Shown here: in pieces, positions 9,712 through 64,000 of the stretch
Numbering within the stretch: the first letter of the stretch is position 1
Layout: each line of letters opens with the position of its first letter
Virus genome (UHGV): UHGV-0294963
Direction: 5' to 3' (one strand)
Length of the DNA: 64,000 bases
Source of the DNA: a virus
Position numbers and translations under genes: made by a program
The notes under the pieces: generated by a model
What the model saw: the letters and a program-made list of their open reading frames with translations, nothing else
Told to the model about the DNA's origin: nothing
Database searches by the model: none

Positions 9712-9734
9712 AGCTGCTCCTCCCTTACTGTAGA

Positions 9735-10058: not shown

Positions 10059-10083
10059 AATAGATAACCTCCTATCAGTTATA

Positions 10084-10788: not shown

Positions 10789-10812
10789 TTAACCACCCCT
10801 CCTTATCTGGAA

Positions 10813-11328
10813 TTAGCCTTCTCCGCCGTCTCCGCCGTCAGCGGCTGCAGAAGTAACTGTAAAGCCGAAGTCTTTGAGGGCTGCACCTGCCTGAACGTAG
10901 AAGGAAGCTTCTGCGTAGGTATCACACGCGAATGTGTTCGTAGTGCCGTCGAGCTCTGCAGTCATTTTGAAGGTCTGCCATGCTCTGTAGATAGAAATCT
11001 GAGGAATGAGGTATGCCTCAAGAATATTCATGAGGTCCATTGCCACAGACTGCGGCCATCTCTTCTGGGCAGAAGTGAGTAAGCTGAGGTTTGCGATTGC
11101 AGTAACAGCACCGTTTGAGTTGGTGAAGAGATTCTCCTTGTTGTACTCAGGTGCAGTTGCGCCGTCAGCTGCATAGATGTAAGGCTTAGAAGCACCAGGC
11201 CACTTACCAGGCATTGTGCTGGAAGAAAGACCAGGGATTGGTGCAACAGTCTTCACGTTTGGCTCCTGATTCTGCATATTGTAGATATCATTGGCAGCCG
11301 TATAGGTGATTGTAACATTGTAACTCAT
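10813..11328 (-). CDS. hypothetical capsid-associated protein (decoration candidate)
   Basis: 171 aa with a Gly/Asp-rich C-terminus, immediately downstream of the MCP. Confidence 0.45.
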   Translation of the reverse strand: MSYNVTITYTAANDIYNMQNQEPNVKTVAPIPGLSSSTMPGKWPGASKPYIYAADGATAPEYNKENLFTNSNGAVTAIANLSLLTSAQKRWPQSVAMDLMNILEAYLIPQISIYRAWQTFKMTAELDGTTNTFACDTYAEASFYVQAGAALKDFGFTVTSAAADGGDGGEG

Positions 11329-12720: not shown

Positions 12721-12734
12721 AAGTAATCTCTCCT

Positions 12735-13337
12735 TTAGCTAAAGTTTTTGAAGTGCGAATTGTATAACATCTCACACAAAGCATTCTTACGCAACTCTGC
12801 CAGTTGACGGCTGGTATTCGTTAACCTGAGAGTGCCTTGTGGGAGGTTTCGCCTTGAGGCTGCGAGCTGAACTGGAACAGCATATTTGAAAGCTGGTAGC
12901 GCTACAAAGTCAAACCCAAAGAAGTCAATTGGACCGGTTGTTCTACCAGGTACGGTACCTGTATCGGTACATCCATCAGCACGAATGCTGACACCAGGCT
13001 TAATACCGTGCATATACAAGTCTTTGATATATCTGCCTTCTTCGGTTGAGTCCAGAAGCTCAATTTTGCCTTTCAGCTTGTTCCCTTCTCTGTAACAGTC
13101 GATTAGGAAACCAGCTTCAGTCTTGCGGAACCCCGGTGTGTTATCCGTAGGGTGCTCGATGTATGCAGGATAGACCCTGCGTGCGAGACAATCCTTGAAG
13201 GTTTCATTATTCAAGAGCCAATCGATTGTTGCTCCCGAAAAAGTCAAACCATCCTGATTGGGAATGTCAATGTCGAGAAAGTCACCACCTACGACAAACC
13301 TTCCGGTGCTTCTGTCTTGGGTCATTTCTGTAACCAT
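12735..13337 (-). CDS. putative scaffold protein or prohead protease
   Basis: 200 aa located between portal and MCP. No catalytic motif could be verified. Confidence 0.35.
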   Translation of the reverse strand: MVTEMTQDRSTGRFVVGGDFLDIDIPNQDGLTFSGATIDWLLNNETFKDCLARRVYPAYIEHPTDNTPGFRKTEAGFLIDCYREGNKLKGKIELLDSTEEGRYIKDLYMHGIKPGVSIRADGCTDTGTVPGRTTGPIDFFGFDFVALPAFKYAVPVQLAASRRNLPQGTLRLTNTSRQLAELRKNALCEMLYNSHFKNFS

Positions 13338-13424
13338 CTGTAATCACCTCGCTTAAATAGACGTCAAATTGTTGTCTATTCAATCTACATTATATGAACA
13401 ATTGTCAGGATTGTCTGCTACTGA

Positions 13425-21438: not shown

Positions 21439-22638
21439 TCAATTATAGGTAATGCCGGTTAAGTTCGGGTACTTCGCGTGAACCGCTTCATACTGAGCTT
21501 GACCACCTACCCAGATGGTGCAAGCGTTCGGCACACCTGTAAATATATCAGGTTGGTCGATTATCGGTGTGTCATTAACCACCTTGGTGAAGTCGATTGA
21601 TGATACATCGATGTAGTTAAGACTGGTGCAATTCTTGAATAAACCTTCCGCGGTATCTATCTTATCTAGACAGCAAGAGCCTAAATCAATTCGCTCTAGG
21701 ACTGAATCATCTGCGAACATATAGCTGATATCAGTTGCGCTATGCGTATCAAGTAACGGTAGTCCTGTAATATCTTGTAGCAAGCTGTTAGCAGCTAACG
21801 CATAACTAAAGGTTGTCACGTTACCCGTATAAACGTGTTCAAGATTTAACCTCGTAGCACGCTGTTGATAAAACAGGTGTGACGCGGTGGTAAAATCAGT
21901 AGCATCAGTTACCGTCCAAATCTCACAATCTTTATACCAGGTATCAGCAGGAACTGCTCGAACTGAACCGATATCTGCATAGTAGGTTGTCTGTGGGGTA
22001 ACAGCACTGGCTGAGGAATATCCTGCAATACGATATGGTTGAGGAAAATCAGAGTTATAAGCTGACTCTAATTTCTTCAACCTAGCCAGTACACCACCAG
22101 GTACTACCCCTGCTTGGTATTCTTGTGCTATCGGAATTAAGCCCGTCATAGTTATCCTAGCATTGGTAACCGGATTAACAGCAGTCATCTGTGTGACTAC
22201 CTCGTCGTAATTAGCTTGATATCCGATACCTATGCCATAATACCGATTAAGTGGAATAGCTAAATCTATCTTATTTAGAATTCTGTAACGAATTCTAAAG
22301 GTAGACGAAGGTCGAGTAGCAGTATACAGATATAACTTCCCGTTTACCGTTTCGACAGCGGTGATACTCTCGAATGCTTGATATTGAGCTTGACGCTCAG
22401 CTTGTGTAGCATTATATGAGTAAATCAGTTGAATTACTGGAACTGTATCTTCCTTGATATTATAGTAGGGCGTTTCCCATCTATATTGCGTACCATAGAT
22501 ATACCAATCTGAATTTACGACATTGGCATATATAGGGTCTCCTGTCTGATGATATGAAGGGTAAACGTTGATAAAATCATCTACATCAGTGAATACCAAC
22601 TCTACTGTAGGTGATACCTGACTAACCTTAAATAGCAT
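21439..22638 (-). CDS. leucine-rich repeat (BspA-type) protein, receptor-binding/tail fibre candidate
   Basis: 399 aa with RBS AAGGAGGTC. The C-terminal half has LRR-like repeats (LxxIDLxxCxLxxIxxAEGLFxNCTSLNYIDVSSIDFT) typical of BspA-family cell-surface proteins. Confidence 0.55.
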   Translation of the reverse strand: MLFKVSQVSPTVELVFTDVDDFINVYPSYHQTGDPIYANVVNSDWYIYGTQYRWETPYYNIKEDTVPVIQLIYSYNATQAERQAQYQAFESITAVETVNGKLYLYTATRPSSTFRIRYRILNKIDLAIPLNRYYGIGIGYQANYDEVVTQMTAVNPVTNARITMTGLIPIAQEYQAGVVPGGVLARLKKLESAYNSDFPQPYRIAGYSSASAVTPQTTYYADIGSVRAVPADTWYKDCEIWTVTDATDFTTASHLFYQQRATRLNLEHVYTGNVTTFSYALAANSLLQDITGLPLLDTHSATDISYMFADDSVLERIDLGSCCLDKIDTAEGLFKNCTSLNYIDVSSIDFTKVVNDTPIIDQPDIFTGVPNACTIWVGGQAQYEAVHAKYPNLTGITYN

Positions 22639-24598: not shown

Positions 24599-26953
24599 TT
24601 ATTGTTCCGGGAATCTGAATTTGATATCCTTGTCGATTGCCGCTTTGCATTCATCAATTGTCTTGTAGATGTGTGGTGAGAACTTACCATAAGGACTTAC
24701 TGCAATATACCCTCCTGACTTCTCACCGCCGGTGATGAGATAATCCTTGTATCTCATAGCACCATCGTCGACGATACTATCATCCAGGTCTACCTCAGAA
24801 CTGTTCAGAGAATCATTATCAACTACAACAGCGAAGCCGTCTTCGAGAGGCTTTATACCAGAAAGCTGGATGCCGAACTCTGCAGCAATTGGCTCGATTT
24901 CGGTTGGCTCCATTCCACGAATGATAATCTTATAGCCTGAGCCTTCACCTTCCGTAGTAGGCACGGTGCTTACCTGCTTTGCTCCTTCTTTGATTTTCTC
25001 GACGAACAATTTTAATGCAGGATTGTCGTGTACCGAGCTATTCAGTTCAGACTTTCTAGAAGAATCCATCTTGACTTCGTCGTTCATGTCGCAGACGGTA
25101 GTCCAGATGCAACCAGGATACTCGACTTCAAATTGTTCTTGAATTGCTTCGTATAAATCCATGCCCTCAAGATTGTCACTGACTGTAATTACTGCCGGCT
25201 TCTCAATTTCATTGCCGTTCTCGTCCTCGTAGTACACCTGAAATTGTTTCTTAGGCTTGTTCACGTCAGCAGTACTCGGTTCGATTGAGCTATCTACACT
25301 CTGCTTTGTTGGAGTAACGTCACCTTCATGAGCGTCGAAAGAATCCCAGCCGTTCTGTACCAGTGTGGTCACGACGTGCTCTATGATATCATCTGCTTCT
25401 GATGCTTGCTCGTCAGAGCCGTCAAAGCCAATGCGAATCGTAGTCGAATCTGGTCGAGCAACCTGCTGAATAGTGATATCCAGATTTTTATCTCTCAATT
25501 CGTTCTCGATAATATTCTTAAGGTCGGACACTCTTTCCTGAGTGCGAGCGAAGTCCTGGGGAACCGTTACCTCACTGATAGCACAATTAAGAGAGCTGTC
25601 GATATCATCGAAATCCTCGGAGTCGAGAGGGTCATCATCTCCGAGGATAACGCGCATAATTTCGTCAACAATTAGCAAGTCTTCAGCGGCCTGTATAATG
25701 TCTACAAGAGCTTCATGCTCATCGACGCTTGCCAATAGCTCCTTTAGTGAACCTTCTACGTCGCCGAACATCTTTTCCTTGATTTGGTCATCGTAGTTAA
25801 GGTCTTCGATAGCCTCTACAATACCAACCAACATTTCATGTTCATCGACCTCTGCCGCAGCTTCCTTCAGCGAATTGGCGGATTCACAGTTCAGTTCATT
25901 CTTTTTTTTAGATGAGTCGAGGCTTTCATCACCTTCGCATACGCAGGGTTCCTGGCCGCACTCGGGGCAGACAGCATCAGTCGGAAGAGCTGCTTGAGCA
26001 GCATCAGCAATTACGACAAAACCTTCAGGAATTTCGTCGTCCTCTGTTTCCTTGACGAAGAGTGCGAGCTCATTGGTATCAGGATTCTGAACAATCTTGA
26101 TATCGTCGAGTGCAACCTCATTGCCAGACTCAGTGGTAATCATTGCAACTTCCTCAGAACCTTCACCGACAACATCTCCGCCATCAGTGTTTCCTTCAGG
26201 TTCTTCTGAAGAGTTCAGCGTAGTACTTCCTGTGGTCTTGTTAGTCCCTTTAGCAGAGTCGAGCTCCTCGGTTGCAGATTCCCAGTCGACAGATTTGGTT
26301 ACATCTGATGATTCTACTGCCTGGCGTGCCTTCTCTGCGTCTGCATCCGGGCAGTCGATTTTTACCTTAACGTCGGTATTGTTAACCTTCTCGAAGTCAA
26401 CCTTAGCACCAGGAACAGCTTTCTCGATTCTGCTTCTGAGCAGACGCTCTGTAGTATCATTATCAAGGTCGGCAAAATCATTATAGATAGTCACTGTGCC
26501 TAAAACCTTGGTGGAACCAACTTCGCAGTTAAGACTAGAATCAGCATTTGTCTTGTCGCAGGAGCCATTCATGTCATCCTTTGTGTACCACTTACCGTCT
26601 GTACGATACCAGAGCTGTTCTTTACCGTCCTTGACAGCCCAGAAATCACCGTCCAAACCTGCCTCTTCAGGAGATGCAAGACGAACAACCTGAGCGCCAG
26701 TCTCATTCTCGAAAGCTTCGAGATATTTCTTTGCTTCTTCTTCGCTAAGCCAATGACAGAGCTCCTGAAGTACAGATTCTCTTGAGCAGTTGAGCTTACG
26801 AATAGTTGCTAGACTTACGCTTGCGATAGCAGAAGTTCTACTCCTCGAACTATTTAGCTCTGTGTTGCGAGGGCGACGCTGCTTTGTCGTAGACTGAGTC
26901 TGAGTCTGAGTCTGAGCATTTGTCTTTGCAACCGGTTTAGTTACATTTACCAT
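24599..26953 (-). CDS. large highly acidic protein with eight LN[SC]x motifs at ~100 aa spacing (candidate protease-processed internal head/ejected polyprotein)
   Basis: 784 aa with RBS AAAGGAGTAATC. Composition is very D/E-rich. LNSS/LNCS/LNCE/LNCA motifs lie at residues ~31, 52, 143, 245, 345, 455, 640 and 725. There is an internal tandem repeat (AAAEVDEHEMLVGIVEAIEDL / LASVDEHEALVDIIQAAEDL). Confidence 0.6.
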   Translation of the reverse strand: MVNVTKPVAKTNAQTQTQTQSTTKQRRPRNTELNSSRSRTSAIASVSLATIRKLNCSRESVLQELCHWLSEEEAKKYLEAFENETGAQVVRLASPEEAGLDGDFWAVKDGKEQLWYRTDGKWYTKDDMNGSCDKTNADSSLNCEVGSTKVLGTVTIYNDFADLDNDTTERLLRSRIEKAVPGAKVDFEKVNNTDVKVKIDCPDADAEKARQAVESSDVTKSVDWESATEELDSAKGTNKTTGSTTLNSSEEPEGNTDGGDVVGEGSEEVAMITTESGNEVALDDIKIVQNPDTNELALFVKETEDDEIPEGFVVIADAAQAALPTDAVCPECGQEPCVCEGDESLDSSKKKNELNCESANSLKEAAAEVDEHEMLVGIVEAIEDLNYDDQIKEKMFGDVEGSLKELLASVDEHEALVDIIQAAEDLLIVDEIMRVILGDDDPLDSEDFDDIDSSLNCAISEVTVPQDFARTQERVSDLKNIIENELRDKNLDITIQQVARPDSTTIRIGFDGSDEQASEADDIIEHVVTTLVQNGWDSFDAHEGDVTPTKQSVDSSIEPSTADVNKPKKQFQVYYEDENGNEIEKPAVITVSDNLEGMDLYEAIQEQFEVEYPGCIWTTVCDMNDEVKMDSSRKSELNSSVHDNPALKLFVEKIKEGAKQVSTVPTTEGEGSGYKIIIRGMEPTEIEPIAAEFGIQLSGIKPLEDGFAVVVDNDSLNSSEVDLDDSIVDDGAMRYKDYLITGGEKSGGYIAVSPYGKFSPHIYKTIDECKAAIDKDIKFRFPEQ

Positions 26954-28753: not shown

Positions 28754-30478
28754 TCAAAGTGTTCTATCAGCAAAGACTTCACCAACACCCTTGATTACTT
28801 CTTGAATAAATGGGACCCGAATTTGGTCGTATACTGTAGCACCCTTAGCATTGCCGATAAGATGCTGAATCTGTGATTTAGGTAGTGCCATAAAACCAGC
28901 AAGGGCATTCTGGAACGATTGACCTGCATAATGAGAACGGAGGTATGCCTCGATTTCACCAGCACCAGCTTTCGCAAGACCGTTAATACCCAGACCAACC
29001 AGAATCTGTGCTAACGTCATCGACTTCTTAGACGCATCAACTCTTTGCATATAGGTATTCATCTTCGCCCTGCCACTACCTGGAATTGTGAGTATGTCGA
29101 TAGGCTTGATTTTATAGAAGTCAGCCGGAGTCTGAAGTTTACCTTTATCAAAGAGTGCAGTTACCAAGCTGCTTGCGACACCCTTGAAATTACCGACTTT
29201 CTTGTCAGTCCAACCGTTCAGACGAGCCAGCAGCTTCTCCTTGCACTTAACATTCGCACAAACACCTAGTGCTGAAATACCGGTAAGTACCGAACCACAA
29301 GCCGGGCAAACCGTAGGCTTAGGAATTGGAATAGACTCGGGTGTGTGCCTTGCAGATTTAATTGCAGGAATAATATCACCTGCTTTATACACAACAACCA
29401 TATCGTTAATTTGAACATCGAGTTCCTGGATTCGTCCCCAGTTATGCAGCGTAGCTTTGGTAATGGTACTACCCATGACATTAACCGGCTCCAGAATAGC
29501 TACAGGATTGAGCTTACCGGTTGCGCCTACCTGCCACTCAACACCTTTAAGGAGAGTCTCCTTTTCTTGTGCAGGAAATTTATAAGCAATAGCCCATCTC
29601 GGTACTACACCATTATCTCCAAGCTGTTCTCTAAGTTCGAGATTATCAACCTTGAGAACCATACCATCAATCGGAATATCCTCAGCTTCACGCTTTGCCT
29701 GAACCTCGGAGATAATGGCTGCTACATTTTCACCGGTGCTCACTTCCCAATGAGCTACGGGACTAAAGCCCCACAATGCTAATGCCTGCAAGCACTTGCT
29801 ATGAGTATCGAGGGTGCCTACAGCCGAAGGAATGTCGTTGATAGTCTTCGGATTTTCAAGATTGAACACTCTGCAAGAGAGGTAAGCAGCTCTTTCAGGT
29901 TCGCTGTCTCTCTTGAATATACCCACAGCGGTATTTCGAGGATTTGCTTGTTTTCCGTATCTCTTGCAGTAGTCTGCAAAGCGAGACTTTAGCATAAACA
30001 CCTCACCGCGGACGATTATTTCATCTTTACAGTCGATTGTCTTAGGAATATCGGCAATATACTGAGCAGCGGAGATACGCTCTACACCCTTTTTACCGTC
30101 ACCTCGGGTTGATGCCGAAACGAGCTCACCATTTCTGTAGATAAGCTGAACAGACAAACCGTCGAGTTTATATTCTTGGAATACCTTTGACACGTTCTTG
30201 TGCTTATTCAGGAACTCTTTAGCATCGTCGACCGTGAATACATCGAGAAGACTGAGCATCGCGACGGGATGTATGACATCGCCATCACCCATATCGGGAT
30301 TTACCGACTGCGTCGGGCTGTTCTCTGCAGCTCGATGATACTTCTCATAATCGTAGATGTCTGCCATATAGCTGTCATACAGTTCATCAGAAATACCAGT
30401 TAAAGCTCCTTGAATGTAGAGCAGTCGTGCATTGTTCACGACTTTGATAAGTTCATGATATCTTTCTTCTGTTATCAT
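28754..30478 (-). CDS. ligA: NAD-dependent DNA ligase (LigA family), lacking an obvious BRCT domain
   Basis: 574 aa. Domain Ia-like N-terminus (ISDELYDSYMADIYDYEKYH). Adenylation lysine motif is KLDGLS. TRGDG motif is present. Cys4 zinc finger is CPACGS...CANVKC. C-terminal helix-hairpin-helix region. RBS is AGGAGGTTAAG. Confidence 0.9.
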   Translation of the reverse strand: MITEERYHELIKVVNNARLLYIQGALTGISDELYDSYMADIYDYEKYHRAAENSPTQSVNPDMGDGDVIHPVAMLSLLDVFTVDDAKEFLNKHKNVSKVFQEYKLDGLSVQLIYRNGELVSASTRGDGKKGVERISAAQYIADIPKTIDCKDEIIVRGEVFMLKSRFADYCKRYGKQANPRNTAVGIFKRDSEPERAAYLSCRVFNLENPKTINDIPSAVGTLDTHSKCLQALALWGFSPVAHWEVSTGENVAAIISEVQAKREAEDIPIDGMVLKVDNLELREQLGDNGVVPRWAIAYKFPAQEKETLLKGVEWQVGATGKLNPVAILEPVNVMGSTITKATLHNWGRIQELDVQINDMVVVYKAGDIIPAIKSARHTPESIPIPKPTVCPACGSVLTGISALGVCANVKCKEKLLARLNGWTDKKVGNFKGVASSLVTALFDKGKLQTPADFYKIKPIDILTIPGSGRAKMNTYMQRVDASKKSMTLAQILVGLGINGLAKAGAGEIEAYLRSHYAGQSFQNALAGFMALPKSQIQHLIGNAKGATVYDQIRVPFIQEVIKGVGEVFADRTL

Positions 30479-30917: not shown

Positions 30918-31679
30918 TTACAGAAATTGCTTATAGATAGGGTCTAAGCTATTATTGATAAAATCGCATTGATGGCACTTAAAGTCGATAATTTTTCGAA
31001 TTATTTCTACTTCAGAATCATAGATAGATGCTACTTTAGGACAGTGGTCAGACTCACCTAAGCTGATACCGCCATCAATTCGGATAGCAGGTGTGCAATA
31101 GAAGTGAGACACAAAAAGATGTTCAACAATCAAACCAATTGACGGGTTCTTCAACTGCTTGGTAACCGCTCGCACATTAAGACACTTAGACGCTTTCGCT
31201 TTCCATGGTAGCTTATTAGCGAGAGCTCTGCCTTGTGGGTATATCTGAGTAACACATCGGTCGCATAGAATAAATCCTGACTCACGCCAAAGTCTCTTGT
31301 GTAAGGGTAAGGCTTTCGGGTAGTATCTAGAGTCTGTAGATACCTGCCAAAATACTTTCGTGCACGGTGTTCCCGCTGCAATTCTTTTAGCAGCATCGGG
31401 ATGTTCTAGGCACCAGAATCCGTTCGTCGTAATCGTAATCACAGATTGGTGTCTCTCTTCAGAAAACCTGGTTAGTATTCTGTTCATAATCAATTCAAAA
31501 TCAGGGTGTTCGGTAGGCTCACCACCTGACACGACGACATGCTCATAAGCTTCGTTTCTGATTAGAAACTCTAGAACATCGTTGAGCGTGTCTAAAGTCA
31601 TATGTTCTCCTTCAGGTGTTGCACTGTTCATACAATGAGTACAACCCATCGAACATTTTTCAGTCAATTTCAGCAGCAT
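30918..31679 (-). CDS. radical SAM domain enzyme
   Basis: 253 aa. CSMGCTHC is a CxxxCxxC cluster motif near the N-terminus. VVVSGGEPT is a SAM-binding glycine-rich motif. Additional C-terminal cysteines are present. Confidence 0.7.
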   Translation of the reverse strand: MLLKLTEKCSMGCTHCMNSATPEGEHMTLDTLNDVLEFLIRNEAYEHVVVSGGEPTEHPDFELIMNRILTRFSEERHQSVITITTNGFWCLEHPDAAKRIAAGTPCTKVFWQVSTDSRYYPKALPLHKRLWRESGFILCDRCVTQIYPQGRALANKLPWKAKASKCLNVRAVTKQLKNPSIGLIVEHLFVSHFYCTPAIRIDGGISLGESDHCPKVASIYDSEVEIIRKIIDFKCHQCDFINNSLDPIYKQFL

Positions 31680-33392: not shown

Positions 33393-33593
33393 TTATCCTA
33401 ATAAGTCCCAGAACTCTTTAGAAGTAATCTGGTATATCTTAGTCGAGTCATAGGCATCGGTGATGACTACCTCTCCATTCTGCTCATACATGGAAATGAG
33501 CAATCCAGTACTGTCTTTCGGGTTACCACCGACTTTGCTGTCCTGGATGCGGTTTTCTTCTTTTAGCTCACGTCGTATAGGTAAATCCTTCAT
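33393..33593 (-). CDS. hypothetical small protein
   Basis: 66 aa ORF. Confidence 0.4.
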   Translation of the reverse strand: MKDLPIRRELKEENRIQDSKVGGNPKDSTGLLISMYEQNGEVVITDAYDSTKIYQITSKEFWDLLG

Positions 33594-34455
33594 GATAAAC
33601 CCCCTCCTTGATGGGCAAGACTACAATGTCGTGATTGCAAGCAGAAGCATGGTTGTTCGCCATATCAATAAATACAGATATTTCGCTAAATTCAACCGAA
33701 CTGTTACTTATCAGCTTTAAGCCTACAGTATCTCCCCAAACGAACAAAGTACCCGCCGGTAAAGTCGAAAAGGTCTGCTTGGTACGTTCTTTGTCAGAAA
33801 TAACCTTAACCTTGATATTAGAAGAAACCGTTCTGAGCTTATAGTAATCCATATCTACAATATTAGATTCATACGCTGCAGGGTGCTTTACCCAATCACC
33901 GTCTACCCGGTTGTCTTTTATCTTAATGCCTATCAGATTATACCAGCGGAATACAGCACCTACCGGTAATTCTGAGAACGAAATATCACCCTCCCAGTCT
34001 TCCTTCAGCTTCTCGATTTCAGATTGACTCAACGGCTTCACCCACAAGTCGGTTCGAGAGGTAATTCGATGTCCGTTGTCTAAACGAATAATATTTCCTT
34101 GATGCTTGGGCGACTTATCAGTGATAATCTCATTCGTGAGTTTTCTGAACAGCTTACCACCGAAGTTAAAGATAGTGCCTACAGGGACTTTCTCGAGAGG
34201 AAGCATACCACGCATCGCCTGATATCTCTTCTTATCGATTTTGCAGCCAGGGTATGCTTTTTCGATAGCAGCTACAATTTCGGTATTTATCTGTTCGGTG
34301 TTGGTGCAACCAGAAGCAGAATACCAGTCGTCGCCTAGGAAGTAATGACATAGTTCATCAAGAGCAACCTGAGCTTTCATTGGTGGTGCAAATATACCAT
34401 AATCACCAGGTTCGCATAAACTCAAAATACGGTCTCTGTCAAATTTCTTGTGCAT
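33568..34455 (-). CDS. hypothetical protein
   Basis: 295 aa ORF. Confidence 0.5.
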   Translation of the reverse strand: MHKKFDRDRILSLCEPGDYGIFAPPMKAQVALDELCHYFLGDDWYSASGCTNTEQINTEIVAAIEKAYPGCKIDKKRYQAMRGMLPLEKVPVGTIFNFGGKLFRKLTNEIITDKSPKHQGNIIRLDNGHRITSRTDLWVKPLSQSEIEKLKEDWEGDISFSELPVGAVFRWYNLIGIKIKDNRVDGDWVKHPAAYESNIVDMDYYKLRTVSSNIKVKVISDKERTKQTFSTLPAGTLFVWGDTVGLKLISNSSVEFSEISVFIDMANNHASACNHDIVVLPIKEGVYHEGFTYTT

Positions 34456-56631: not shown

Positions 56632-57201
56632 TTATTTCTGGTCGATGAATGTAGCGGCTTCATCTGCGACATGCAGCATCCAAGCCAAGGGGTTGTCGTT
56701 GAACACCTGACTAATCACTCCCTGCTTTCCTTCTTCCCAGGTAGCCATATGGCAGTTGATTGCTGCTGCTTCTGCTGGATTCAGCTTAATATACTGCTGA
56801 GCAATGTAGACAGACTTGCTACCATGTCCTCCGAACTTAAAGCATTCATCGTGGTCCCAAGTCTGGTATTTCTCCCACTGTCCGAACATATTCTTTCTGC
56901 TCTTCTCTGTAGGCTTATAGGTATTGATTTTGCACAGGTCATGCAGCAAAGCAACGATGATTCTTGAACTGCGCGCAGTAGCAACCTTGTCGTTATATAC
57001 GGTGGCAATTCTCTCGAGCTCATCGTAAACCGCTAAGCAATGGTCAACAAGACCACCTGCATATGCTCCGTGGTACTTAGAGCTTGCCGGTGCGGTGAAC
57101 CAGTCGGAACTGGGACTGTTCAGATAACTGATAAGGTCCTCAATACCCGGTACCTGTGTGCTGCGAAGTAGATTAATATATCTCTCTGCTGGTGTTTCCA
57201 T
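56632..57201 (-). CDS. HD-domain phosphohydrolase
   Basis: Start METPAERY with RBS AAAGGAAATATT. Conserved motifs are H...H (KYHGAYAGGLVDHCL) and HD (LLHDLCK), with later H/D residues. Confidence 0.65.
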   Translation of the reverse strand: METPAERYINLLRSTQVPGIEDLISYLNSPSSDWFTAPASSKYHGAYAGGLVDHCLAVYDELERIATVYNDKVATARSSRIIVALLHDLCKINTYKPTEKSRKNMFGQWEKYQTWDHDECFKFGGHGSKSVYIAQQYIKLNPAEAAAINCHMATWEEGKQGVISQVFNDNPLAWMLHVADEAATFIDQK

Positions 57202-57202
57202 A

Positions 57203-57769
57203 TTAAATATTTCCTTTCTGTTTATCATTCGCTGCCAGCTTGTTAGCTTGACAATAGATGTAATAGTAGCAGAAATTGTCGAACACATTACCAATCAGTG
57301 CTGCAACGAATAGCACGGTTAAACTCATGTCGGTCATCAGCGCGATTCCTGCACCTGCAAGTGTTGCTATGCTATTCACGATGTTGCAGTTGTTGTCATA
57401 TCGTTCTCTGCTTTTCTCATCTGGGTGTACCTTAGCTCTAAGTCTAATGCCTCCGTTTGCCATATTCCTTGTTATCAAAGCATATATTAGAACATTCAAT
57501 GCGAAGTAGAATCGCAAGTCACCGGTGATTATAACATGAGCAAATAATATCACATCGGCAATAATCTCCAGAGTAACTATAGATAGATAATGCTTGTATA
57601 AGAAATCACCTTTCTTATTCCAGAGTATGCCGAATACAACAACACCCAGACAGGTTACTATCTGTTCACCTGAAATGTAGAAGTAGTTGACCACCTTTAT
57701 CGTCTCAGCATAGATGTATGGATAACTCATCGAATAAAATATGCTGCAGATGAGGTTGGTGGTCAGCAT
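57203..57769 (-). CDS. polytopic membrane protein
   Basis: About 5 hydrophobic helices. The start is uncertain because the ORF-table N-terminus overlaps the upstream gene. Confidence 0.5.
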   Translation of the reverse strand: MLTTNLICSIFYSMSYPYIYAETIKVVNYFYISGEQIVTCLGVVVFGILWNKKGDFLYKHYLSIVTLEIIADVILFAHVIITGDLRFYFALNVLIYALITRNMANGGIRLRAKVHPDEKSRERYDNNCNIVNSIATLAGAGIALMTDMSLTVLFVAALIGNVFDNFCYYYIYCQANKLAANDKQKGNI

Positions 57770-57773
57770 AAAT

Positions 57774-58529
57774 TTAGACAGTTTCTGCCGAGTCATTACG
57801 CTCACCGTCTTCAAGCTTGTCAACATCCTTAGCACGGCGTCTAACATTATCATGGAATTGCTTATAACGCTGATTGTATTCATCAGCGTCAATCGATGTA
57901 AATTGCTCATCGACTTCTTTGAAGTACCAATTCAGAACTTCAACCTTACCATCTGGGCACTTAACTGACTTGATTTCCATGGTGTCGAATTCACCAGGTA
58001 TACCGCTGACTGCGAAGTCGAACGCACTGACATAATATCTACCTGTAGGCCAATAAGGCATCTCGATAGGGTACATTTCAGAAATCTTTCTTGATACAAA
58101 GCCATTCGTCCAGCAGGTACCGGCACTATTCGTGCATACGACACGTTCTACGTCACTAAATGTAGCCTCGCCAGTCTTCTTGTCAACATCCTTGAACAGA
58201 GAGTGACAACGCTTGCATTGATACGTTGCTACATCATCAGTTTCGTGAATCAGGTTCCAGGATTCTGGTACGTCTTCGATAGGTGTCAGCGGATAACCAT
58301 CAAGCAGTCTCTTAAGAATACCTCGAGTTACGCCGAAGCTGTACCCGCTGTGCTTGTCTTCCATCAGTGACTTGTAAGCCTTAAGAGCGCTAGCATAGCA
58401 ACCTCCTGCGTACTGCTTACCCATCTCTTTCATATCTTCGTCTGTCTCTTCAGGGTCATTTTCTATGGCAGCGGTTTCACGCTTTAGTGCCAATTCAACT
58501 TCTTTTTCTGCCCATTCGGTCATACTCAT
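57774..58529 (-). CDS. hypothetical protein
   Basis: 251 aa. Has a CKRCHS...C...C cluster. Confidence 0.5.
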   Translation of the reverse strand: MSMTEWAEKEVELALKRETAAIENDPEETDEDMKEMGKQYAGGCYASALKAYKSLMEDKHSGYSFGVTRGILKRLLDGYPLTPIEDVPESWNLIHETDDVATYQCKRCHSLFKDVDKKTGEATFSDVERVVCTNSAGTCWTNGFVSRKISEMYPIEMPYWPTGRYYVSAFDFAVSGIPGEFDTMEIKSVKCPDGKVEVLNWYFKEVDEQFTSIDADEYNQRYKQFHDNVRRRAKDVDKLEDGERNDSAETV

Positions 58530-58534
58530 GCTCT

Positions 58535-59224
58535 TTACCTCTTCTTTCCTGTAATAATTTCGCTGTATGGAAGACTTTCAATCCACTCACAGAATGTGTG
58601 CCATTCATCCAGCTTGTGGTCTTTACGATAATGATACATCGCGCCAAGTGTTTCATAGTTGAGCATCACGGTACGCTTCTGATTATAACTCGACGGCAGA
58701 AGCTGAATGAGCTGCCACCAAGCGTTCTTGTTCTTGGTCTCGATAAACTGGTCTCGATAGTAGTTCAGAAGTTCGATAGTCTTTTTCAGAACTTCCATCG
58801 AGTCCAGATTGAGGTGGTCGGTTGAAAAATCACTGACCTCAAATTCCTTGCTGTGAATCTTGTGCATAGTAGAACAGGAATTCATTTCAATACTATCCTC
58901 GATGAGATGGTCACCAGCGTAGCTGTAGAAGTCTTCCTCGTCGACGAAGTCCTTACCCTTGCGATACGTCTTGAATTCCTTCCAGAAATACAACGGTGCG
59001 TCAATATCAACACATACCGTGATAAATCTACGATACTTAGCGTGTACCGGACCGCCTGAAGCAAGTGAGTTCATCAGCTTAAGGTCATTCGGACCAACCG
59101 TGTCATCTTGGTTATTAAACTTCCCAAAACCGCTGTCTGACTTATCCCAGGAGTTCTTGGGGTTTCGCATACCGCGAACAGCAGCTTCTAGGTTAGTTAC
59201 TCGAGTTTGTGTGAGTTCTATCAT
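58535..59224 (-). CDS. divergent ThyX-like (flavin-dependent thymidylate synthase fold) protein lacking the canonical RHR motif
   Basis: The C-terminal segment LLPSSYNQKRTVMLNYETLGAMYHYRKDHKLDEWHTFCEWIESL resembles the ThyX C-terminal helix region, recalled from memory as LP.S..T......N.R....F..LR.D..AQWEIR. The position of the RHRxxS dUMP-binding motif is occupied by FKTYRKG. Comparison is from memory only. Confidence 0.35.
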   Translation of the reverse strand: MIELTQTRVTNLEAAVRGMRNPKNSWDKSDSGFGKFNNQDDTVGPNDLKLMNSLASGGPVHAKYRRFITVCVDIDAPLYFWKEFKTYRKGKDFVDEEDFYSYAGDHLIEDSIEMNSCSTMHKIHSKEFEVSDFSTDHLNLDSMEVLKKTIELLNYYRDQFIETKNKNAWWQLIQLLPSSYNQKRTVMLNYETLGAMYHYRKDHKLDEWHTFCEWIESLPYSEIITGKKR

Positions 59225-59411
59225 CTGAGTTCATCTCCTTTAGTGTTTTCGGTTCAGTTCGTAAGAATGATGCCGTAAATGCTTTCTCCTCAGGGCAATC
59301 CTCGCAGTTCTTGTCGTCCTGATAAGGGCAAGAACACCCGATTATAGGACATTCGTACTCATCTGAATTTCCTTCGTGAGTTCTGTCATCCCAGAAATTA
59401 TATTCAGCCAT
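59193..59411 (-). CDS. Cys-rich small protein
   Basis: 72 aa. Contains CPIIGCSCPYQDDKNCEDCPEE. Confidence 0.4.
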   Translation of the reverse strand: MAEYNFWDDRTHEGNSDEYECPIIGCSCPYQDDKNCEDCPEEKAFTASFLRTEPKTLKEMNSDDRTHTNSSN

Positions 59412-59700
59412 CTGACTTATCCTTCCAGGGACTGAGTGCCTTCATTACATCGTTCATCTTGACATTAAGCTGAATCTTTTCAGCATACTCATCATACCAT
59501 TTGATTTTAGCTTTATCTTGCTCCTCGCTATTACCGTCTTTGTTACCTGCACGGTAACCGTACTTGTATGCGTTCAGTTTGCAAAACCAGTAGACAGCGA
59601 TGTCACCGAACTGTTCACGCATCTCTACGATGCATTCTTTTCTGCCTTCCTGGTTATAATGTGACGGGTGGTCAACATTTTGCTTAATTACGTCGTCCAT
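59404..59700 (-). CDS. DUF3310-like phage protein
   Basis: HPSHY...ECIVEM...AYKYGYRAGNKDG resembles the DUF3310 signature (from memory). Confidence 0.45.
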   Translation of the reverse strand: MDDVIKQNVDHPSHYNQEGRKECIVEMREQFGDIAVYWFCKLNAYKYGYRAGNKDGNSEEQDKAKIKWYDEYAEKIQLNVKMNDVMKALSPWKDKSDG

Positions 59701-59789
59701 CTATATTCTCCTTTATGTAAGGGAGGTTATCTAGAATCCCTCCCGAAGCGTCTATATGAAGGTACCCTAATCTAGAATCGTTCGGCGAA

Positions 59790-60092
59790 TTATTCTGTAG
59801 CAGCTGCCTGCAAATTAGGGTATACGATGTCCCTGACGGTGAAGTTCTCCCACTTCTTGTAGACATCGATGTACGCTTCATCCTTATCGCCGTTGTATGT
59901 TATTTCATAATACATACCGTCAGACATGGGTGTGCTGAACAGACCCTTATGATTTTGCAGGGACTTGCCGTACCAGACGTTATAAACTTCTTCAGGCTTG
60001 AGCTCCTTAGAGTCAGTCACATCACGATGTTTATTGAAATACTTCGCAACCTGTTCCTGACCAAATTCGATAAATTCTGCGGAACTGAACAT
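59790..60092 (-). CDS. hypothetical protein (start MFSSAEF with RBS AGAAAGGAG; ORF-table N-terminal 73 codons run through the tRNA gene and are rejected)
   Basis: RBS spacing is correct for the ATG at 60092. Confidence 0.45.
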   Translation of the reverse strand: MFSSAEFIEFGQEQVAKYFNKHRDVTDSKELKPEEVYNVWYGKSLQNHKGLFSTPMSDGMYYEITYNGDKDEAYIDVYKKWENFTVRDIVYPNLQAAATE

Positions 60093-60235
60093 CAGTCTCA
60101 TCTCCTTTCTAGAAAAATAATGGCGGGTATATCTAGCATTACCCGCCTTCGAGTACTTTGGAGGTTTTCCTATGGCTTGGGAAAACTGACCGGAAGCTAG
60201 AATCCGAAGAGATGTGGGCTTGGGAAAGCCCTGGT

Positions 60236-60306
60236 TGGGGCAGCGGGATTCGAACCCACGGAATGACAGAGTCAAAGTCTGTTGCCTTACCGCTTGGCTA
60301 TGCCCC
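60236..60306 (-). tRNA. tRNA-Gln (anticodon UUG)
   Basis: The revcomp reads GGGGCATAGCCAAGCGGTAAGGCAACAGACTTTGACTCTGTCATTCCGTGGGTTCGAATCCCGCTGCCCCA. The anticodon arm is ACAGA-CTTTGAC-TCTGT with U33 and A37. The T-arm is GTGGGTTCGAATCCCGC. The acceptor stem is 6 of 7 paired. No encoded CCA. Confidence 0.7.
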
Positions 60307-60341
60307 AGCAAGAATCCCAGTAGAACTGGGATAGATAAAAA

Positions 60342-60623
60342 TCAGCAATAGTTTCGGGTTAGTAATCTTTCAAAGTAATCTTTCAGCTCTATACCAGACT
60401 CTGGTACATCCTGCTTAATTCCTTCCGATTCATCTTTCATGAACCCTTCGAAGTAGTTCGCGACTATACGAAGCCCTTCCACGAAAGATTCGAGCGTGTC
60501 TAGGTCCACTCTATTGTCTCTAAGGTCCTGTCTGAACTCGCTGACACCTTTCCTGAGTCTTGTTAGTTCTTCTTTCGCCTTGTGAGCCTCGGTATTATCA
60601 AGAACAACAACCGTGACTTTCAT
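60342..60623 (-). CDS. hypothetical protein (start MKVTVVV with RBS GTAGGAGGTAC)
   Basis: The ORF-table version starts 18 nt upstream inside the RBS region. Confidence 0.45.
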   Translation of the reverse strand: MKVTVVVLDNTEAHKAKEELTRLRKGVSEFRQDLRDNRVDLDTLESFVEGLRIVANYFEGFMKDESEGIKQDVPESGIELKDYFERLLTRNYC

Positions 60624-60640
60624 CGTGTACCTCCTACACA

Positions 60641-60690
60641 TTTAATATTGTAAGTATATTATAACACGCATTAACCACGAAAACGAAGTT
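60641..60690 (-). promoter_or_regulatory. conserved promoter element copy (variant)
   Basis: tttaatattgtaagtatattataacacgcattaaccacgaaaacgaagtt. Confidence 0.5.
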
Positions 60691-60700
60691 GTGCGTGTAC

Positions 60701-60926
60701 CTACTTGGAATGAAGTCCTGACTGTCTGTTCAGTTCTGCTTCATTCCAGATAAATGACGTTCCCGTACCTACGATACCTAATATCTTGAAGTCAGGGCGA
60801 TAGGGGATTACGAAGTCTACGTCCTGATACTCAAAGGTTCCATCATCGTTCTTCGAGGCTATCAGCACGGAGATATCTCCGTGCTCCGCCATAGTAGATA
60901 CAAGATTCTTAATCAGTGTTGACATT
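60701..60926 (-). CDS. hypothetical protein (start near MLMSTLIK; upstream part of ORF-table entry overlaps next gene out of frame)
   Basis: Start site is uncertain. Confidence 0.35.
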
Positions 60927-61352
60927 AGCATTGTCATCATCCTCCTTGTCGTTTGCTGGTGTGAATTTACCAGGAAATTCATGTATTCCTTGTGCAAGCA
61001 TATCTGCAAAGACTTTGTCAAGTCCTGTCGCCTCAAGCTGATGTGCTGTAGAATCGATGCACATCTGACGCTGCACTGACTTCATAAAATCGGTAAAAGC
61101 TTCGTGCAAGCCATTGACATACTTGTCTACCTCTGCTTCTGCTTCAGGTGTAACTTCTTTTACCTTCGGCATCGGTGTAATACTGTCTACGCAGTGCAGT
61201 AGAAGGTCAGATACCGTATGAACTAAACCTTCATACATATCACTAATACTGCACTGAGAACGCATCAGAGTGCCTTTATCTGTGAACACCATTGTGTAGT
61301 ATCCGTTGTTCGGTTCTGTGCAGATTACAGTAATAGAGCTTCCATCAATCAT
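60909..61352 (-). CDS. hypothetical protein
   Basis: 147 aa with an acidic C-terminus. Confidence 0.45.
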   Translation of the reverse strand: MIDGSSITVICTEPNNGYYTMVFTDKGTLMRSQCSISDMYEGLVHTVSDLLLHCVDSITPMPKVKEVTPEAEAEVDKYVNGLHEAFTDFMKSVQRQMCIDSTAHQLEATGLDKVFADMLAQGIHEFPGKFTPANDKEDDDNANVNTD

Positions 61353-61363
61353 AAGATTTCACC

Positions 61364-61609
61364 TCACTTATCATATGTCTCATCAACATCACCTTCAGGA
61401 TAATAGCAATTGGTACGAATCCAATCATTCTTCTGATAGGTGTCGAGTCGATAGCAGTACGTGTCACCATACGGTTCTTTGCTGATGATGACATTTTCAC
61501 CTCTATCATTGACGCACGCTGCAGGAAGCTGAGTATCAGAACAGAATACTTCTAGCGTAGCAAACGATATAGGTGAACATACAGTTCTAGGTATTGTGTT
61601 AGAATTCAC
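61364..61609 (-). CDS. hypothetical small protein
   Basis: 81 aa ORF. Confidence 0.4.
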   Translation of the reverse strand: MNSNTIPRTVCSPISFATLEVFCSDTQLPAACVNDRGENVIISKEPYGDTYCYRLDTYQKNDWIRTNCYYPEGDVDETYDK

Positions 61610-61840
61610 CTGGGATTACTCCTTTCGAACGTATCCACTTTTATTATGTGCCCTGAGCATCCTCCAGCAGCTATTACAGCACTCAACTGGTCAGGGCATA
61701 TCTTCCAAAAATAAGCTTGATTGTGCTGAGTGGTTATGTACACGATGTAGCTACCTCGATTACATCGCAATTCACAAGGGAAATCGTGTATAACCAAATC
61801 ACCATTCACCAGTACCGGCTGCTTCATACGCTTAAACCCT
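61606..61840 (-). CDS. hypothetical protein (3' portion of ORF 61606..62049; probable internal start)
   Basis: Overlaps 61832..62113 in another frame. Only the downstream part looks coding. Confidence 0.3.
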
Positions 61841-62113
61841 ATCGACATATGTATGAACGCAGTCATTGAGAACATACCAGAGTAGTGACATGAACTCAAA
61901 TCCATCGTGGTTCTGACTAACTTCCTCGACGTTAGTATGTTCCCAGATATCTTGAGCCACCTTGACGAAGTCGTCATCAGTTCTTGCTGATTTTGCCTTG
62001 ATGAACATATCAGAGTAATTCTCATTCGAACCCCATGTATAGAGTCCATACCGAATACAAACTCCTCTAAGCTCGCTGATATTGAGTTTTCTTTCGATTT
62101 TAATACCGTCCAT
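61832..62113 (-). CDS. hypothetical protein
   Basis: 93 aa ORF directly downstream of a promoter copy. Confidence 0.45.
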   Translation of the reverse strand: MDGIKIERKLNISELRGVCIRYGLYTWGSNENYSDMFIKAKSARTDDDFVKVAQDIWEHTNVEEVSQNHDGFEFMSLLWYVLNDCVHTYVDRV

Positions 62114-62138
62114 ATCTAGCCTCCCAGCATATAGTTGA

Positions 62139-62192
62139 TTGTGTTTTATTGTATCTACATTATAACATATACCAGAGGACCGAAACGAAGTT
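62139..62192 (-). promoter_or_regulatory. conserved promoter element copy
   Basis: ttgtgttttattgtatctacattataacatataccagaggaccgaaacgaagtt. Confidence 0.6.
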
Positions 62193-62194
62193 GC

Positions 62195-62578
62195 TTACGG
62201 TGAGCCTAAGGTCATCAGTAGACAGTTTACGGTATAGTTTTCTCGTACTAGGTCACAGTCATGGCGCTGTAGCGTGCCGACCTCTTTGAGCCTCCAACCT
62301 CTTTTATACATGACTTTAAGAAAGTCGATTAGCGAGGTGTCTCGTGCAGTAATCGCGATGGTACCCACGTCTGCCATGATTAGTTGTGTCATGAATTCAT
62401 CGATATAGTCTTCACTTGGTAGTTGAGTTACCTCATACAGTTCGCTACCGTGGCGTAGACTATCGACATAGTTCCGCATGGCAGTTGCTTGACCAGAACC
62501 TAAGCGTTGGTCAGCTGCACCAGATTTGAACCTGTTATGCTGCTCAACCAGCTGCTCAAGATAAGAATTCTTCTCCAT
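62195..62578 (-). CDS. hypothetical protein
   Basis: 127 aa ORF. Confidence 0.45.
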   Translation of the reverse strand: MEKNSYLEQLVEQHNRFKSGAADQRLGSGQATAMRNYVDSLRHGSELYEVTQLPSEDYIDEFMTQLIMADVGTIAITARDTSLIDFLKVMYKRGWRLKEVGTLQRHDCDLVRENYTVNCLLMTLGSP

Positions 62579-62912
62579 GACTTGTCATCTCCTCATAATC
62601 CTCTGGGTTATACTTCTTCATCCATTCACCAAGAATTGCTGTAGCCTCCTTCTGAGACAGATTAAATCTCTCTTCTAGGTAAGGAGCTGCACAGAACATA
62701 TTGGTAATTCCAGACCTGCGTAACTTTTCCAGAAATATCCAGTATTTATTCTGAGTCACCAGGAACACCTCCCCGCCTATACTCAGCTTTGTGCGGTACC
62801 TCGCAGTCATCTTGTGTGAATAGAAATACAGGTTCTTGATTTTCGGTGGTGTATAGATACGCAGGCTTTTCGACCACGGTGTAGCGAGCATGGCAATCGA
62901 ACGCGAACGCAA
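62556..62912 (-). CDS. hypothetical protein
   Basis: 118 aa ORF. Confidence 0.4.
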   Translation of the reverse strand: MRSRSIAMLATPWSKSLRIYTPPKIKNLYFYSHKMTARYRTKLSIGGEVFLVTQNKYWIFLEKLRRSGITNMFCAAPYLEERFNLSQKEATAILGEWMKKYNPEDYEEMTSHGEEFLS

Positions 62913-63201
62913 TCTCCCTGTCTGCTATCTCAGGATTCTGCTCAATCATTTCGGTCAGAAATTCTGCCAAGTCTTTGACAGTCAGATTCTGAGAGTGTGG
63001 TACAGGACCGGGTACTTGGTCATTCCAAGCTTCAATAGCCATCGCGTCGGTACCATTTACTACTCTAGGACCTTCATGATTACACGCACCGCATTTTACC
63101 CAACGGTACCAGCAGAAAGGACCTTTTGTTGCGCAAAGTAACGGTAACTCTGCTCTACATTCGGGGCAAGGCTTAGTTGCAGAATTTTCAAATGGACTCA
63201 T
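62746..63201 (-). CDS. hypothetical protein with N-terminal zinc ribbon
   Basis: Contains CPECRAEL...CGACNHEG. Overlaps the previous ORF out of frame over a long stretch, so one of the two N-termini is probably wrong. Confidence 0.4.
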   Translation of the reverse strand: MSPFENSATKPCPECRAELPLLCATKGPFCWYRWVKCGACNHEGPRVVNGTDAMAIEAWNDQVPGPVPHSQNLTVKDLAEFLTEMIEQNPEIADREIAFAFDCHARYTVVEKPAYLYTTENQEPVFLFTQDDCEVPHKAEYRRGGVPGDSE

Positions 63202-63212
63202 GTTTAATCTCC

Positions 63213-63959
63213 TTATATGACCAGACAGCCAGTTCTAGAACATACTGCTTTCTGAAAGTCACTTCTACTCAACTCCGTTTTCTCGTGATATTTCGCTTCC
63301 GCAAACATCTGGTCGATTACGTCGACGAATTCGCAGGGGAAAGACCGGTCACTCATAGGACCGTAGATAATCTGCAGTAGAAATTCCTTATCTACATCCT
63401 TAGAATATGAAATATCGAATGCTCTAGCATAGTCATCTAAGATAGATAGAGCACAATCACCGAGGTAACACTCTAGAATAGGTTTAACACCAATGCGAGT
63501 AAATCTACGCACCAGAGCCTTATCTGCAGACAAGTGTTCCTCGAATTCTGTATCTGTTGTGGCAGTAATTACGCTAAACTCACCTCGTGCTAAGGCAGGC
63601 TTCAGCAAATTAGCAGCGGACACAGCACCTTCTGCTTCACCAAGAGACGTGAGCGTGTGAGCTTCATCGATAAATAGAACTACCCTTCGTTTGAGCTTTC
63701 CTAATTCATGGATAATTGTCTGGAGTCTCTCTTCGAAATCACCACGGAACTTCGCACCACCGAGTATATCACCACAGGACAGTTCATAAATCATCGGTAA
63801 ACCCGGACTTAGCAGTGATAGCGGTTCGCAGTCAGAATCTTTAATCCAGTTCCGATATAGCATGTTTTCCAGCTTTTGTGCTAAGCCTTCCACTATAGAC
63901 GTCTTGCCGCAGCCTGTGGCGCCTGTAAGCATGATATTCGGTTTGGTTTGTCTGAACAA
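63213..63959 (-). CDS. Clp/Hsp100-type AAA+ ATPase, single D1-like domain
   Basis: Walker A is LTGATGCGKTSIVEGLAQ. GAKFRGDFEERLQTII, Walker B LFIDEAH and AVSAANLLKPALARGEF...ITATT...RRF align closely with the ClpA/ClpB D1 domain (recalled sequence). The N-terminus may extend beyond the ORF-table start. Confidence 0.7.
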   Translation of the reverse strand: MFRQTKPNIMLTGATGCGKTSIVEGLAQKLENMLYRNWIKDSDCEPLSLLSPGLPMIYELSCGDILGGAKFRGDFEERLQTIIHELGKLKRRVVLFIDEAHTLTSLGEAEGAVSAANLLKPALARGEFSVITATTDTEFEEHLSADKALVRRFTRIGVKPILECYLGDCALSILDDYARAFDISYSKDVDKEFLLQIIYGPMSDRSFPCEFVDVIDQMFAEAKYHEKTELSRSDFQKAVCSRTGCLVI

Positions 63960-64000
63960 AGCAATCTGAATTTTCTCAATTTCAGCATCTCTAGCGTAGC

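Follow-up and report, generated by a model that had tools for sequence, protein, structure and literature searches.

A gene at the extreme right end of the stretch analysed here (64,000 nucleotides of the virus genome UHGV-0294963; hereafter the window), on the minus strand, was found to encode the first AAA+ module (D1) of the Clp/Hsp100 proteins as a protein on its own. Hsp100/Clp proteins with two rings are the standard examples of unfoldases, and debate continues over how D1 and the second module (D2) share the work. As judged from the alignments, the phage protein is D1 alone, comprising the large ATPase subdomain and the helical lid, and D1-only proteins of this type form an undescribed and diverse family that is phage-borne as far as sampled. 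On balance, we favour the view that the protein acts as an autonomous single-ring protein unfoldase or remodeller of early infection, probably on host or defence proteins.

Identity and boundaries of the D1 module

Analysis of all PDB chains with phmmer matched residues 2-235 of the query to residues 182-401 of E. coli ClpB (E=4.8e-35); further matches were found to S. aureus ClpC (1.2e-34), M. tuberculosis ClpC1 (~3e-34) and E. coli ClpA (9.8e-30). The Pfam family AAA (PF00004) scored 45.3 bits against a cut-off of 21.2, which places the protein in the AAA+ superfamily. Matches to profiles of longer proteins were partial. The match to PHROG 4871 ('ATP-dependent protease', 3.5e-48) was confined to profile positions 196-442 of 764, and the NCBIfam equivalogs for ClpB, ClpA and ClpV matched in the D1 segment only, their whole-protein cut-offs not being reached (ClpB TIGR03346, 172.8 vs 1232.1; ClpA TIGR02639, 165.8 vs 993.15; TssH/ClpV TIGR03345, 159.3 vs 884.95). 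The similarity to Clp is far beyond chance.

Other assignments were considered and rejected. Clamp-loader or replication AAA+ families also matched (PHROG 5846, 4.5e-7; orc1/cdc6, 6e-6), the Clp D1 matches being 40 orders of magnitude better, and Pfam matches to STAND, NACHT and TniB families represent generic P-loop similarity. Comparison with PADLOC-DB revealed no specific defence or counter-defence family, only generic P-loop/AAA matches (mad8, 1.6e-7 over 27 residues; TRIP13, 1.5e-5).

The motifs of the module were located directly on the window DNA and the equivalent ClpB residues were taken from the phmmer alignment. The gene and its parts are as follows.

63213 to 64000, minus strand: stand-alone Clp/Hsp100 D1-type AAA+ ATPase gene, 3' part (788 nucleotides; 261 complete codons and the stop codon)
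63900 to 63923, minus strand: Walker A (P-loop), GATGCGKT, aligned to ClpB K212
63795 to 63866, minus strand: insertion of about 20-30 residues specific to the family, placed after the Walker-A helix and before strand beta2 (alignment A2)
63741 to 63752, minus strand: pore-1 loop, KFRG, equivalent of ClpB Y251
63663 to 63680, minus strand: Walker B, VLFIDE, equivalent of ClpB D278/E279
63555 to 63563, minus strand: sensor-1, ATT, equivalent of ClpB T315
63504 to 63509, minus strand: arginine-finger pair, RR, equivalent of ClpB R331/R332
63216 to 63485, minus strand: alpha-helical lid (small) subdomain, ending ...SRTGCLVI (alignment A2, AlphaFold2 and Foldseek)

Invariant positions in the family alignments are G66, G69, G71 and K72 of Walker A, D151 and E152 of Walker B (alignments A1 and A3), T188 of sensor-1 and R204 and R205 of the arginine-finger pair, while C70 of Walker A is present in at least 90%. 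The pore-1 loop reads KYRG in most relatives; R125 and G126 are invariant and the aromatic residue is tyrosine in at least 90%. The insertion is missing from E. coli ClpA and from the ClpA-like protein of phage GAP32 in alignment A2, and in the AlphaFold2 model this region forms a long helix (72-93) followed by a helix at 99-102.

The AlphaFold2 model, built with the family alignment, reached a predicted local distance difference test (pLDDT) of 90.3 and a predicted template modelling score (pTM) of 0.88, with lid helices at 216-234, 244-252, 262-277 and 285-296. The closest PDB folds identified by Foldseek are the D1 tiers of ClpC, ClpC1, ClpA and ClpB (template modelling score, TM, 0.73-0.78; 279-298 aligned columns; 30-35% identity). 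In the Pfam listing for the window protein AAA_lid_9 is not among the best 25 families; it passes in more distant D1-only members (25.5-29.1 bits vs a cut-off of 22.8, and in a further comparison 25.9 bits). Together with the phmmer and Foldseek matches, the pore loop, the paired arginine fingers and the lid identify the protein as a class-I Clp/Hsp100 D1 module.

The likeness to the D1 tier (nucleotide-binding domain 1, NBD1) of ClpA, ClpC, ClpC1 and ClpB covers the fold (TM ~0.77), the sequence identity (30-35% with D1 structures, 34-40% with cellular homologues), Walker A and B, sensor-1, the double arginine finger, a KYR-type pore-1 loop, the pore-2 and helix region 'GxxEGAxxAxNxLKPxLARGE' and the helical lid. 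Unlike the Clp D1 tier, the phage protein comes without N-domain, M-domain, D2 ring or ClpP-docking loop, and it has cysteine in place of valine in the P-loop, the insertion of 20-30 residues and extra family-specific cysteines.

The stop codon of the gene (63213-63215) lies within the window. The open reading frame (ORF) originally listed, 63213-63959, began at a TTG codon and gave 248 amino acids. However, the frame is open to 63998 without a stop, and the 13 extra residues upstream of the TTG, YARDAEIEKIQIA, align with the conserved ClpB segment 'GRDEEIRRTIQVL' that precedes the P-loop. Because the frame stays open and these residues are homologous to Clp, the TTG at 63959 lies inside the gene, which continues past the window edge. 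A contig of 66.6 kb (L006) is 95.7% identical in DNA to window positions 57201-64000 and carries P0001, a homologue of 301 amino acids with 95% identity. The DNA alignment pairs window base 64000 with L006 base 10119, and L006 10001 is the first base of the gene; since this alignment puts the ATG there, 118 nucleotides (about 40 codons) are missing from the window and the protein has 301 amino acids. The missing N-terminus is MLERSSYYLDSLDLSHRCPTLSKYSRNLTLLAAEDKLPRC and contains no Clp N-domain. The length of about 250 amino acids and the TTG start given in the first-pass annotation therefore need correction, the actual start lying 118 nucleotides beyond the window edge. The same annotation had asked whether the ORF continues upstream; the frame does continue to the window edge, with L006 supplying the remainder, and what lies upstream in relatives is a NADAR hydrolase gene and not the two-domain ClpB-like gene against which it had cautioned.

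Residues 21-276 of P0001 align to ClpA 169-410 by BLASTP, and the whole module spans ClpA 169 to about 438. Full-length homologues start about 20 residues ahead of the ClpA D1 start (residue 169) and stop at the D1-D2 linker; in alignment A2, with E. coli ClpA and the GAP32 ClpA-like protein, the C-terminal '...SRTGCLVI' aligns with 'ARIARIP / TGIPV', the start of that linker. With the stop at the linker, no second AAA+ module (D2: AAA_2 and ClpB_D2-small) is present in the same polypeptide, and a tblastn search of the 64-kb window and of 13 family loci found neither a D2-like nor a Clp_N-like ORF. Precomputed Pfam matches of P0001-P0049 include no Clp_N, the N-terminus being judged on the 95%-identical homologue. 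No M-domain is inserted between 'FP-x-x-x-D-x-x-D' and the C-terminal 'TG-x-[LIV]', and no UVR or coiled-coil Pfam match was found. The ClpP-docking loop of ClpA and ClpC is located in D2, and none of the docking tripeptides IGF, IGL or LGF occurs in P0001 or in the window protein.

These results bear out the first-pass annotation of a phage-encoded single-domain Clp/Hsp100 D1-type AAA+ ATPase, through the matches to the D1 of ClpB, ClpC and ClpA, the motifs, the boundaries and the myovirus character of the window. Its statement that there is no second AAA+ domain agrees with a stop codon inside the window and an unrelated gene following 11 nucleotides on, and its failure to recognise a ClpP-binding loop or substrate N-domain agrees with the lack of the IGF/IGL tripeptide and of Clp_N.

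Family extent, selection and distribution

A search of 5.8 billion proteins revealed about 50 close homologues of 299-328 amino acids, with identities of 95% (P0001), 84% (P0002), 82% (P0003) and then 67% down to 36%; family members are located on phage contigs of 135-165 kb. Among 34 close members the Walker A glycines and lysine, the Walker B Asp-Glu, the sensor-1 threonine, both arginine fingers and the pore-loop Arg-Gly are invariant. An exhaustive profile search of 1.84 billion cluster representatives found about 45 proteins at 264-464 bits, above the plateau of generic Clp proteins (247 or less). Thirty of these are D1-only, with 288-474 amino acids and a match that ends within about 30 residues of the C-terminus. 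With clusters defined at 50% identity, the D1-only clusters number at least 30. In some of their representatives the N-terminus is extended by 86-194 residues, and one of them, P0127, contains Clp_N. The catalytic and pore residues named above likewise do not vary among 31 D1-only cluster representatives (32-55% identity to P0001), and most clusters end in 'TG-x-[LIV]3', which is the same domain boundary.

The ratio of nonsynonymous to synonymous substitution rates (dN/dS) of the gene is 0.06 against L006 and 0.12 against contig L001. On the evidence of these alignments and rates, the residues that serve ATP hydrolysis, the trans-acting arginine fingers and the residues predicted to grip the substrate are under strong purifying selection.

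When P0001 was compared with GTDB genomes of 185,579 bacterial and archaeal species, one per species, only ordinary Clp proteins were found, at 34-40% identity, so there is no sign in these genomes of a recent host donor, of capture or of a prophage copy. Among the 80 best loci in IMG/VR, three are D1-only and the other 77 are Clp genes of 500-900 amino acids. Source pipelines label the family proteins 'ClpC', 'ClpA' or 'ClpA/ClpC ATP-binding subunit'. No description of a D1-only phage Clp was found in the literature, and the Aravind-lab survey of viral NAD and ADP-ribose systems makes no mention of Clp or AAA+. The known phage-encoded relatives are the ClpA-like proteins of jumbo phages in PHROG 4871 (Cronobacter phage GAP32 gp229, Xanthomonas phage XaC1_311 and Serratia phage BF), with about 34% identity over D1; unlike the present family, these are two-ring proteins of 764-774 amino acids with an N-terminal region, encoded among virion and tail genes.

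Two further observations were made on the relatives. The P-loop reads GxxGCGKT; its cysteine, which stands in place of the Clp valine (GVGKT), is shared by at least 90% of close family members and by about 18 of the 31 D1-only clusters. Further cysteines that are nearly invariant are P0001 C40 ('CYAR' for 'VIGR'), C262 ('FPC') and the one in the C-terminal 'GCLV'. The family cysteines could represent a redox-sensitive or metal-related feature near the nucleotide site. Among the best-scoring relatives, P0121 (749 amino acids) and P0126 (766 amino acids) apparently have tandem D1-like modules, AAA with AAA_lid_9 followed by AAA, and no AAA_2-type D2; this layout would be a D1-D1 architecture.

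Gene neighbourhood

The window belongs to a myovirus with tail sheath, portal, major head protein and NAD-dependent ligase genes. Its major head protein shares about 30% identity with the corresponding proteins of large myoviruses of Bacillus, Listeria and Streptococcus. Megablast of window positions 61000-64000 against 50,697 GenBank phage records gave no match; hence there is no close cultured relative among them. A terminase was not identified in the window. The ORF at 12735-13337, a candidate prohead protease, matched no Pfam family at E<=0.01 and shows no recognisable likeness to ClpP. Four ORFs of 399-784 amino acids in or near the structural region (2379-4586, 15279-17231, 21439-22638 and 24599-26953, all on the minus strand) have no PHROG match at E<=1e-5, and for two of these (15279-17231 and 24599-26953) Pfam gave no match at E<=0.001 either; these ORFs underline the divergence of the phage lineage. 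The NAD-dependent DNA ligase is encoded at 28754-30478 on the minus strand (PHROG 3869, E=1.2e-122) and a radical-SAM protein at 30918-31679 on the same strand.

The features that accompany the D1 gene in the window are listed below.

62746 to 63201, minus strand: downstream gene, 151 amino acids, Cys-rich, with a weak Lar-like zinc ribbon at the N-terminus (Lar_restr_allev E=0.0066, below cut-off)
60232 to 60307, minus strand: tRNA-Gln, anticodon UUG, inside the accessory gene block
57774 to 58529, minus strand: homologue of Tad3, a Thoeris inhibitor (Pfam PF25185, E=4.2e-23)
33568 to 34455, minus strand: homologue of Tad8, a Thoeris inhibitor (PF25189, E=2.9e-12)

The downstream gene begins 11 nucleotides past the D1 stop codon and its ribosome-binding site, AAGGAG, overlaps that stop; because of this short gap and overlap the two genes probably share a transcript. 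The same strand carries, further downstream, the tRNA-Gln, Tad3-like, HD-domain, Tad8-like and radical-SAM genes. In relatives the upstream order is PemK-like, sigma-70-like, two small genes, NADAR and D1, with a Tad2-like gene a few kb further up. On these matches the phage seems unusually rich in counter-defence homologues.

NADAR is directly upstream of D1 in eight of the 13 family loci (L001, L002, L006, L007, L010, L097, L098 and L012). In L006 the NADAR gene (9571-10008) overlaps the start of D1 (10001-10906) by 8 nucleotides, and in L012 a difference of 2 nucleotides at the junction produces a single NADAR-D1 ORF of 445 amino acids (6001-7338), a fusion present on this one contig only. 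In L001 (9571-9903) and L002 NADAR is cut to 110 amino acids by an in-frame TGA at a conserved tryptophan codon; despite this stop, D1 is intact in both, with a dN/dS of about 0.1. Unrelated small genes replace NADAR in L009 and L015, and it is not adjacent to D1 in the distant loci L013, L014 and L099. In L009 the gene right after D1 carries Lar_restr_allev and DUF551, and a second Lar-like gene stands upstream in the place of NADAR; the same locus has a DNA ligase gene (Pfam DNA_ligase_aden and OB_DNA_ligase) about 6.7 kb downstream of D1. In L014 the gene directly upstream (1102-1482) of the distant D1-only protein P0049 (36% identity) is nucleoside 2-deoxyribosyltransferase-like (PF05014).

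Predicted function and alternative explanations

In the explanation that we favour on balance, the D1-only protein would form a single-ring hexamer that threads polypeptide without a protease partner, in the manner of ClpX or of the ClpA D1 tier minus ClpP. It would be expressed from a long block of small accessory genes that share one orientation and include many counter-defence homologues. Since the gene lies in this block, the likeliest clients would be host or defence proteins to be dismantled, or phage proteins that need remodelling in early infection. The retained arginine fingers suggest an oligomer, because trans-acting fingers make sense only there. A ring of D1 alone is also plausible because nucleotide binding at NBD1 stabilises the hexamers of ClpA and ClpB (reviewed in PMC5540906).

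The proposed mode of action, one hexameric ring with pore-loop threading and possibly protease-independent remodelling, is that of single-ring AAA+ proteins such as ClpX, HslU and the Pch2/TRIP13 type. Those proteins belong to other AAA+ clades and have other accessory domains; ClpX, for example, has a zinc-binding N-domain and IGF loops, and the weak TRIP13 match (1.5e-5) reflects general AAA+ similarity. Single-ring derivatives of two-ring Hsp100 proteins occur in eukaryotes, where human CLPB/Skd3 and the torsins are D2-only relatives with other domains such as ankyrin repeats. In contrast to these D2-derived proteins, the phage protein is D1-derived and has no extra domain.

Several points weigh against an autonomous unfoldase. 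Natural class-I Clp proteins have two rings, and because D2 is the stronger motor in ClpA, a ring of D1 modules without D2 might unfold proteins only weakly. Neither a substrate-recognition domain nor an adaptor was found, and only the N-terminus (20 residues) and the insertion (20-30 residues) are candidates for conferring specificity. The structure model covers a single chain, and the hexamer is a prediction from the sequence. The window copy has phenylalanine for tyrosine in the pore loop, which is unusual for the family; the residue is aromatic and the change is probably tolerated. Finally, a separately encoded D2-like partner may exist in the approximately 100 kb of genome beyond the window.

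Interference with the host Clp machinery is less likely than autonomous unfolding, and we regard it as improbable, if still the foremost of the alternatives. In this reading, the main proposal of the first-pass annotation, the D1-only protein would act as a poison or decoy that co-assembles with host ClpA, ClpB or ClpC or titrates their adaptors, crippling Clp proteolysis or disaggregation and, for example, stabilising labile antitoxins or phage proteins. The protein is a partial copy of the host machine, and its gene is among genes of the host-takeover and counter-defence type. Fragments and mimics that interfere with Clp machines are also on record, among them mycobacterial ClpC2, an N-domain-only decoy. 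Phages are known to target Clp, as shown by the adaptor mimic Gp53 of phage SPO1, which modulates ClpCP (PMC6873191). D1 moreover holds hexamerisation determinants (PMC5540906). Unlike ClpC2 and Gp53, which are binding modules without ATPase, the phage D1 is a complete and apparently catalytic ATPase module. A poison would need ATP binding and interfaces only, yet the Walker-B glutamate, sensor-1, the arginine fingers and both pore loops are invariant over 32-95% identity. Whichever cellular Clp D1 is compared, identity to the phage protein is only 34-40%; the 185,579 species genomes showed no copy recently derived from a host, and the family has its own insertion. This low identity and the insertion lower the chance that the protein could co-assemble precisely with the ring of a particular host.

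A narrower form of the autonomous-unfoldase explanation couples the D1 ring to NADAR, which we consider doubtful and slightly less probable than a poison. NADAR would remove ADP-ribose from DNA guanines modified by DarT1-type toxins, and the ring would assist, for instance by acting on the toxin or some other factor to unfold or strip it, with NADAR taking the place of the Clp N-domain. With equal reserve, D1 may be seen as a counter-defence unfoldase paired with, and occasionally fused to, NADAR, in which the motor would dismantle a DarT1-type or other effector, or clear DNA of it, while NADAR erases the damage. The direct adjacency in eight of 13 loci, the overlap in L006 and the fusion in L012 are consistent with such a module. 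T4 AdfN (gp30.3) and other phage NADARs are demonstrated anti-DarTG1 enzymes; AdfN(T4) did not work fully outside T-even infection, and its authors suggested the possible need for a partner encoded by the phage (PMC11825919). However, the adjacency is largely inherited synteny of one phage lineage, the fusion is found on a single contig and T4, for which the partner is suspected, is not shown to carry a D1-only gene. An obligate link between NADAR and D1 is disfavoured because NADAR is replaced in L009 and L015, not adjacent in L013, L014 and L099, and interrupted by a stop in L001 and L002 with D1 under constraint.

Reconstitution of a split Clp is less probable again, and we hold it unlikely. 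The D1 ring would stack on a separate D2-like ring, or dock on a host D2/ClpP complex, to rebuild a two-tier unfoldase or protease. The C-terminus does fall exactly at the D1-D2 linker, its conserved hydrophobic tail TG-x-[LIV]3 could serve in docking, and the window shows only about 40% of the genome. Against this, neither the 64-kb window nor the 13 family loci have an AAA_2-like ORF, there is no IGF/IGL loop, and the conserved tail is more simply the last structural element of the D1 lid.

A chaperone for virion assembly or maturation, which the first-pass annotation had also proposed, is very unlikely. The full-length ClpA-like genes of the jumbo phages GAP32 and XaC1 lie between tail-sheath-stabiliser and virion structural genes, whereas about 46 kb separate the present gene, in the early accessory block, from the head and portal genes (11350-15011), and the genes conserved around it are of the NADAR, Lar-like, sigma-like and Tad-like kinds and not structural; the idea therefore has no contextual support. 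That the gene is a decaying and functionless remnant of a captured clpA, clpB or clpC, as a fragment of a larger architecture might suggest, is ruled out by the dN/dS of 0.06-0.12 and the constant length of 299-328 amino acids among close homologues down to 36% identity, together with the same boundaries and invariant catalytic residues in at least 30 clusters at 50% identity.

For the annotation of phage genomes, the pipeline label 'ClpA/ClpC ATP-binding subunit' is misleading, as it implies a ClpP-coupled protease. Because the family is phage-restricted as sampled and sited among Thoeris-inhibitor-like, Lar-like and NADAR genes, it may constitute an unrecognised host-takeover or counter-defence class that uses ATP-driven protein remodelling rather than binding or enzymatic reversal. 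If the pairing of an unfoldase with NADAR were true, it would be the first case of an anti-defence factor that unfolds proteins with energy from ATP, and also the first of an Hsp100 D1 machine that stands alone in nature. A natural and strongly conserved D1-only family would in itself be a ready-made test of the D1 ring as an autonomous motor.

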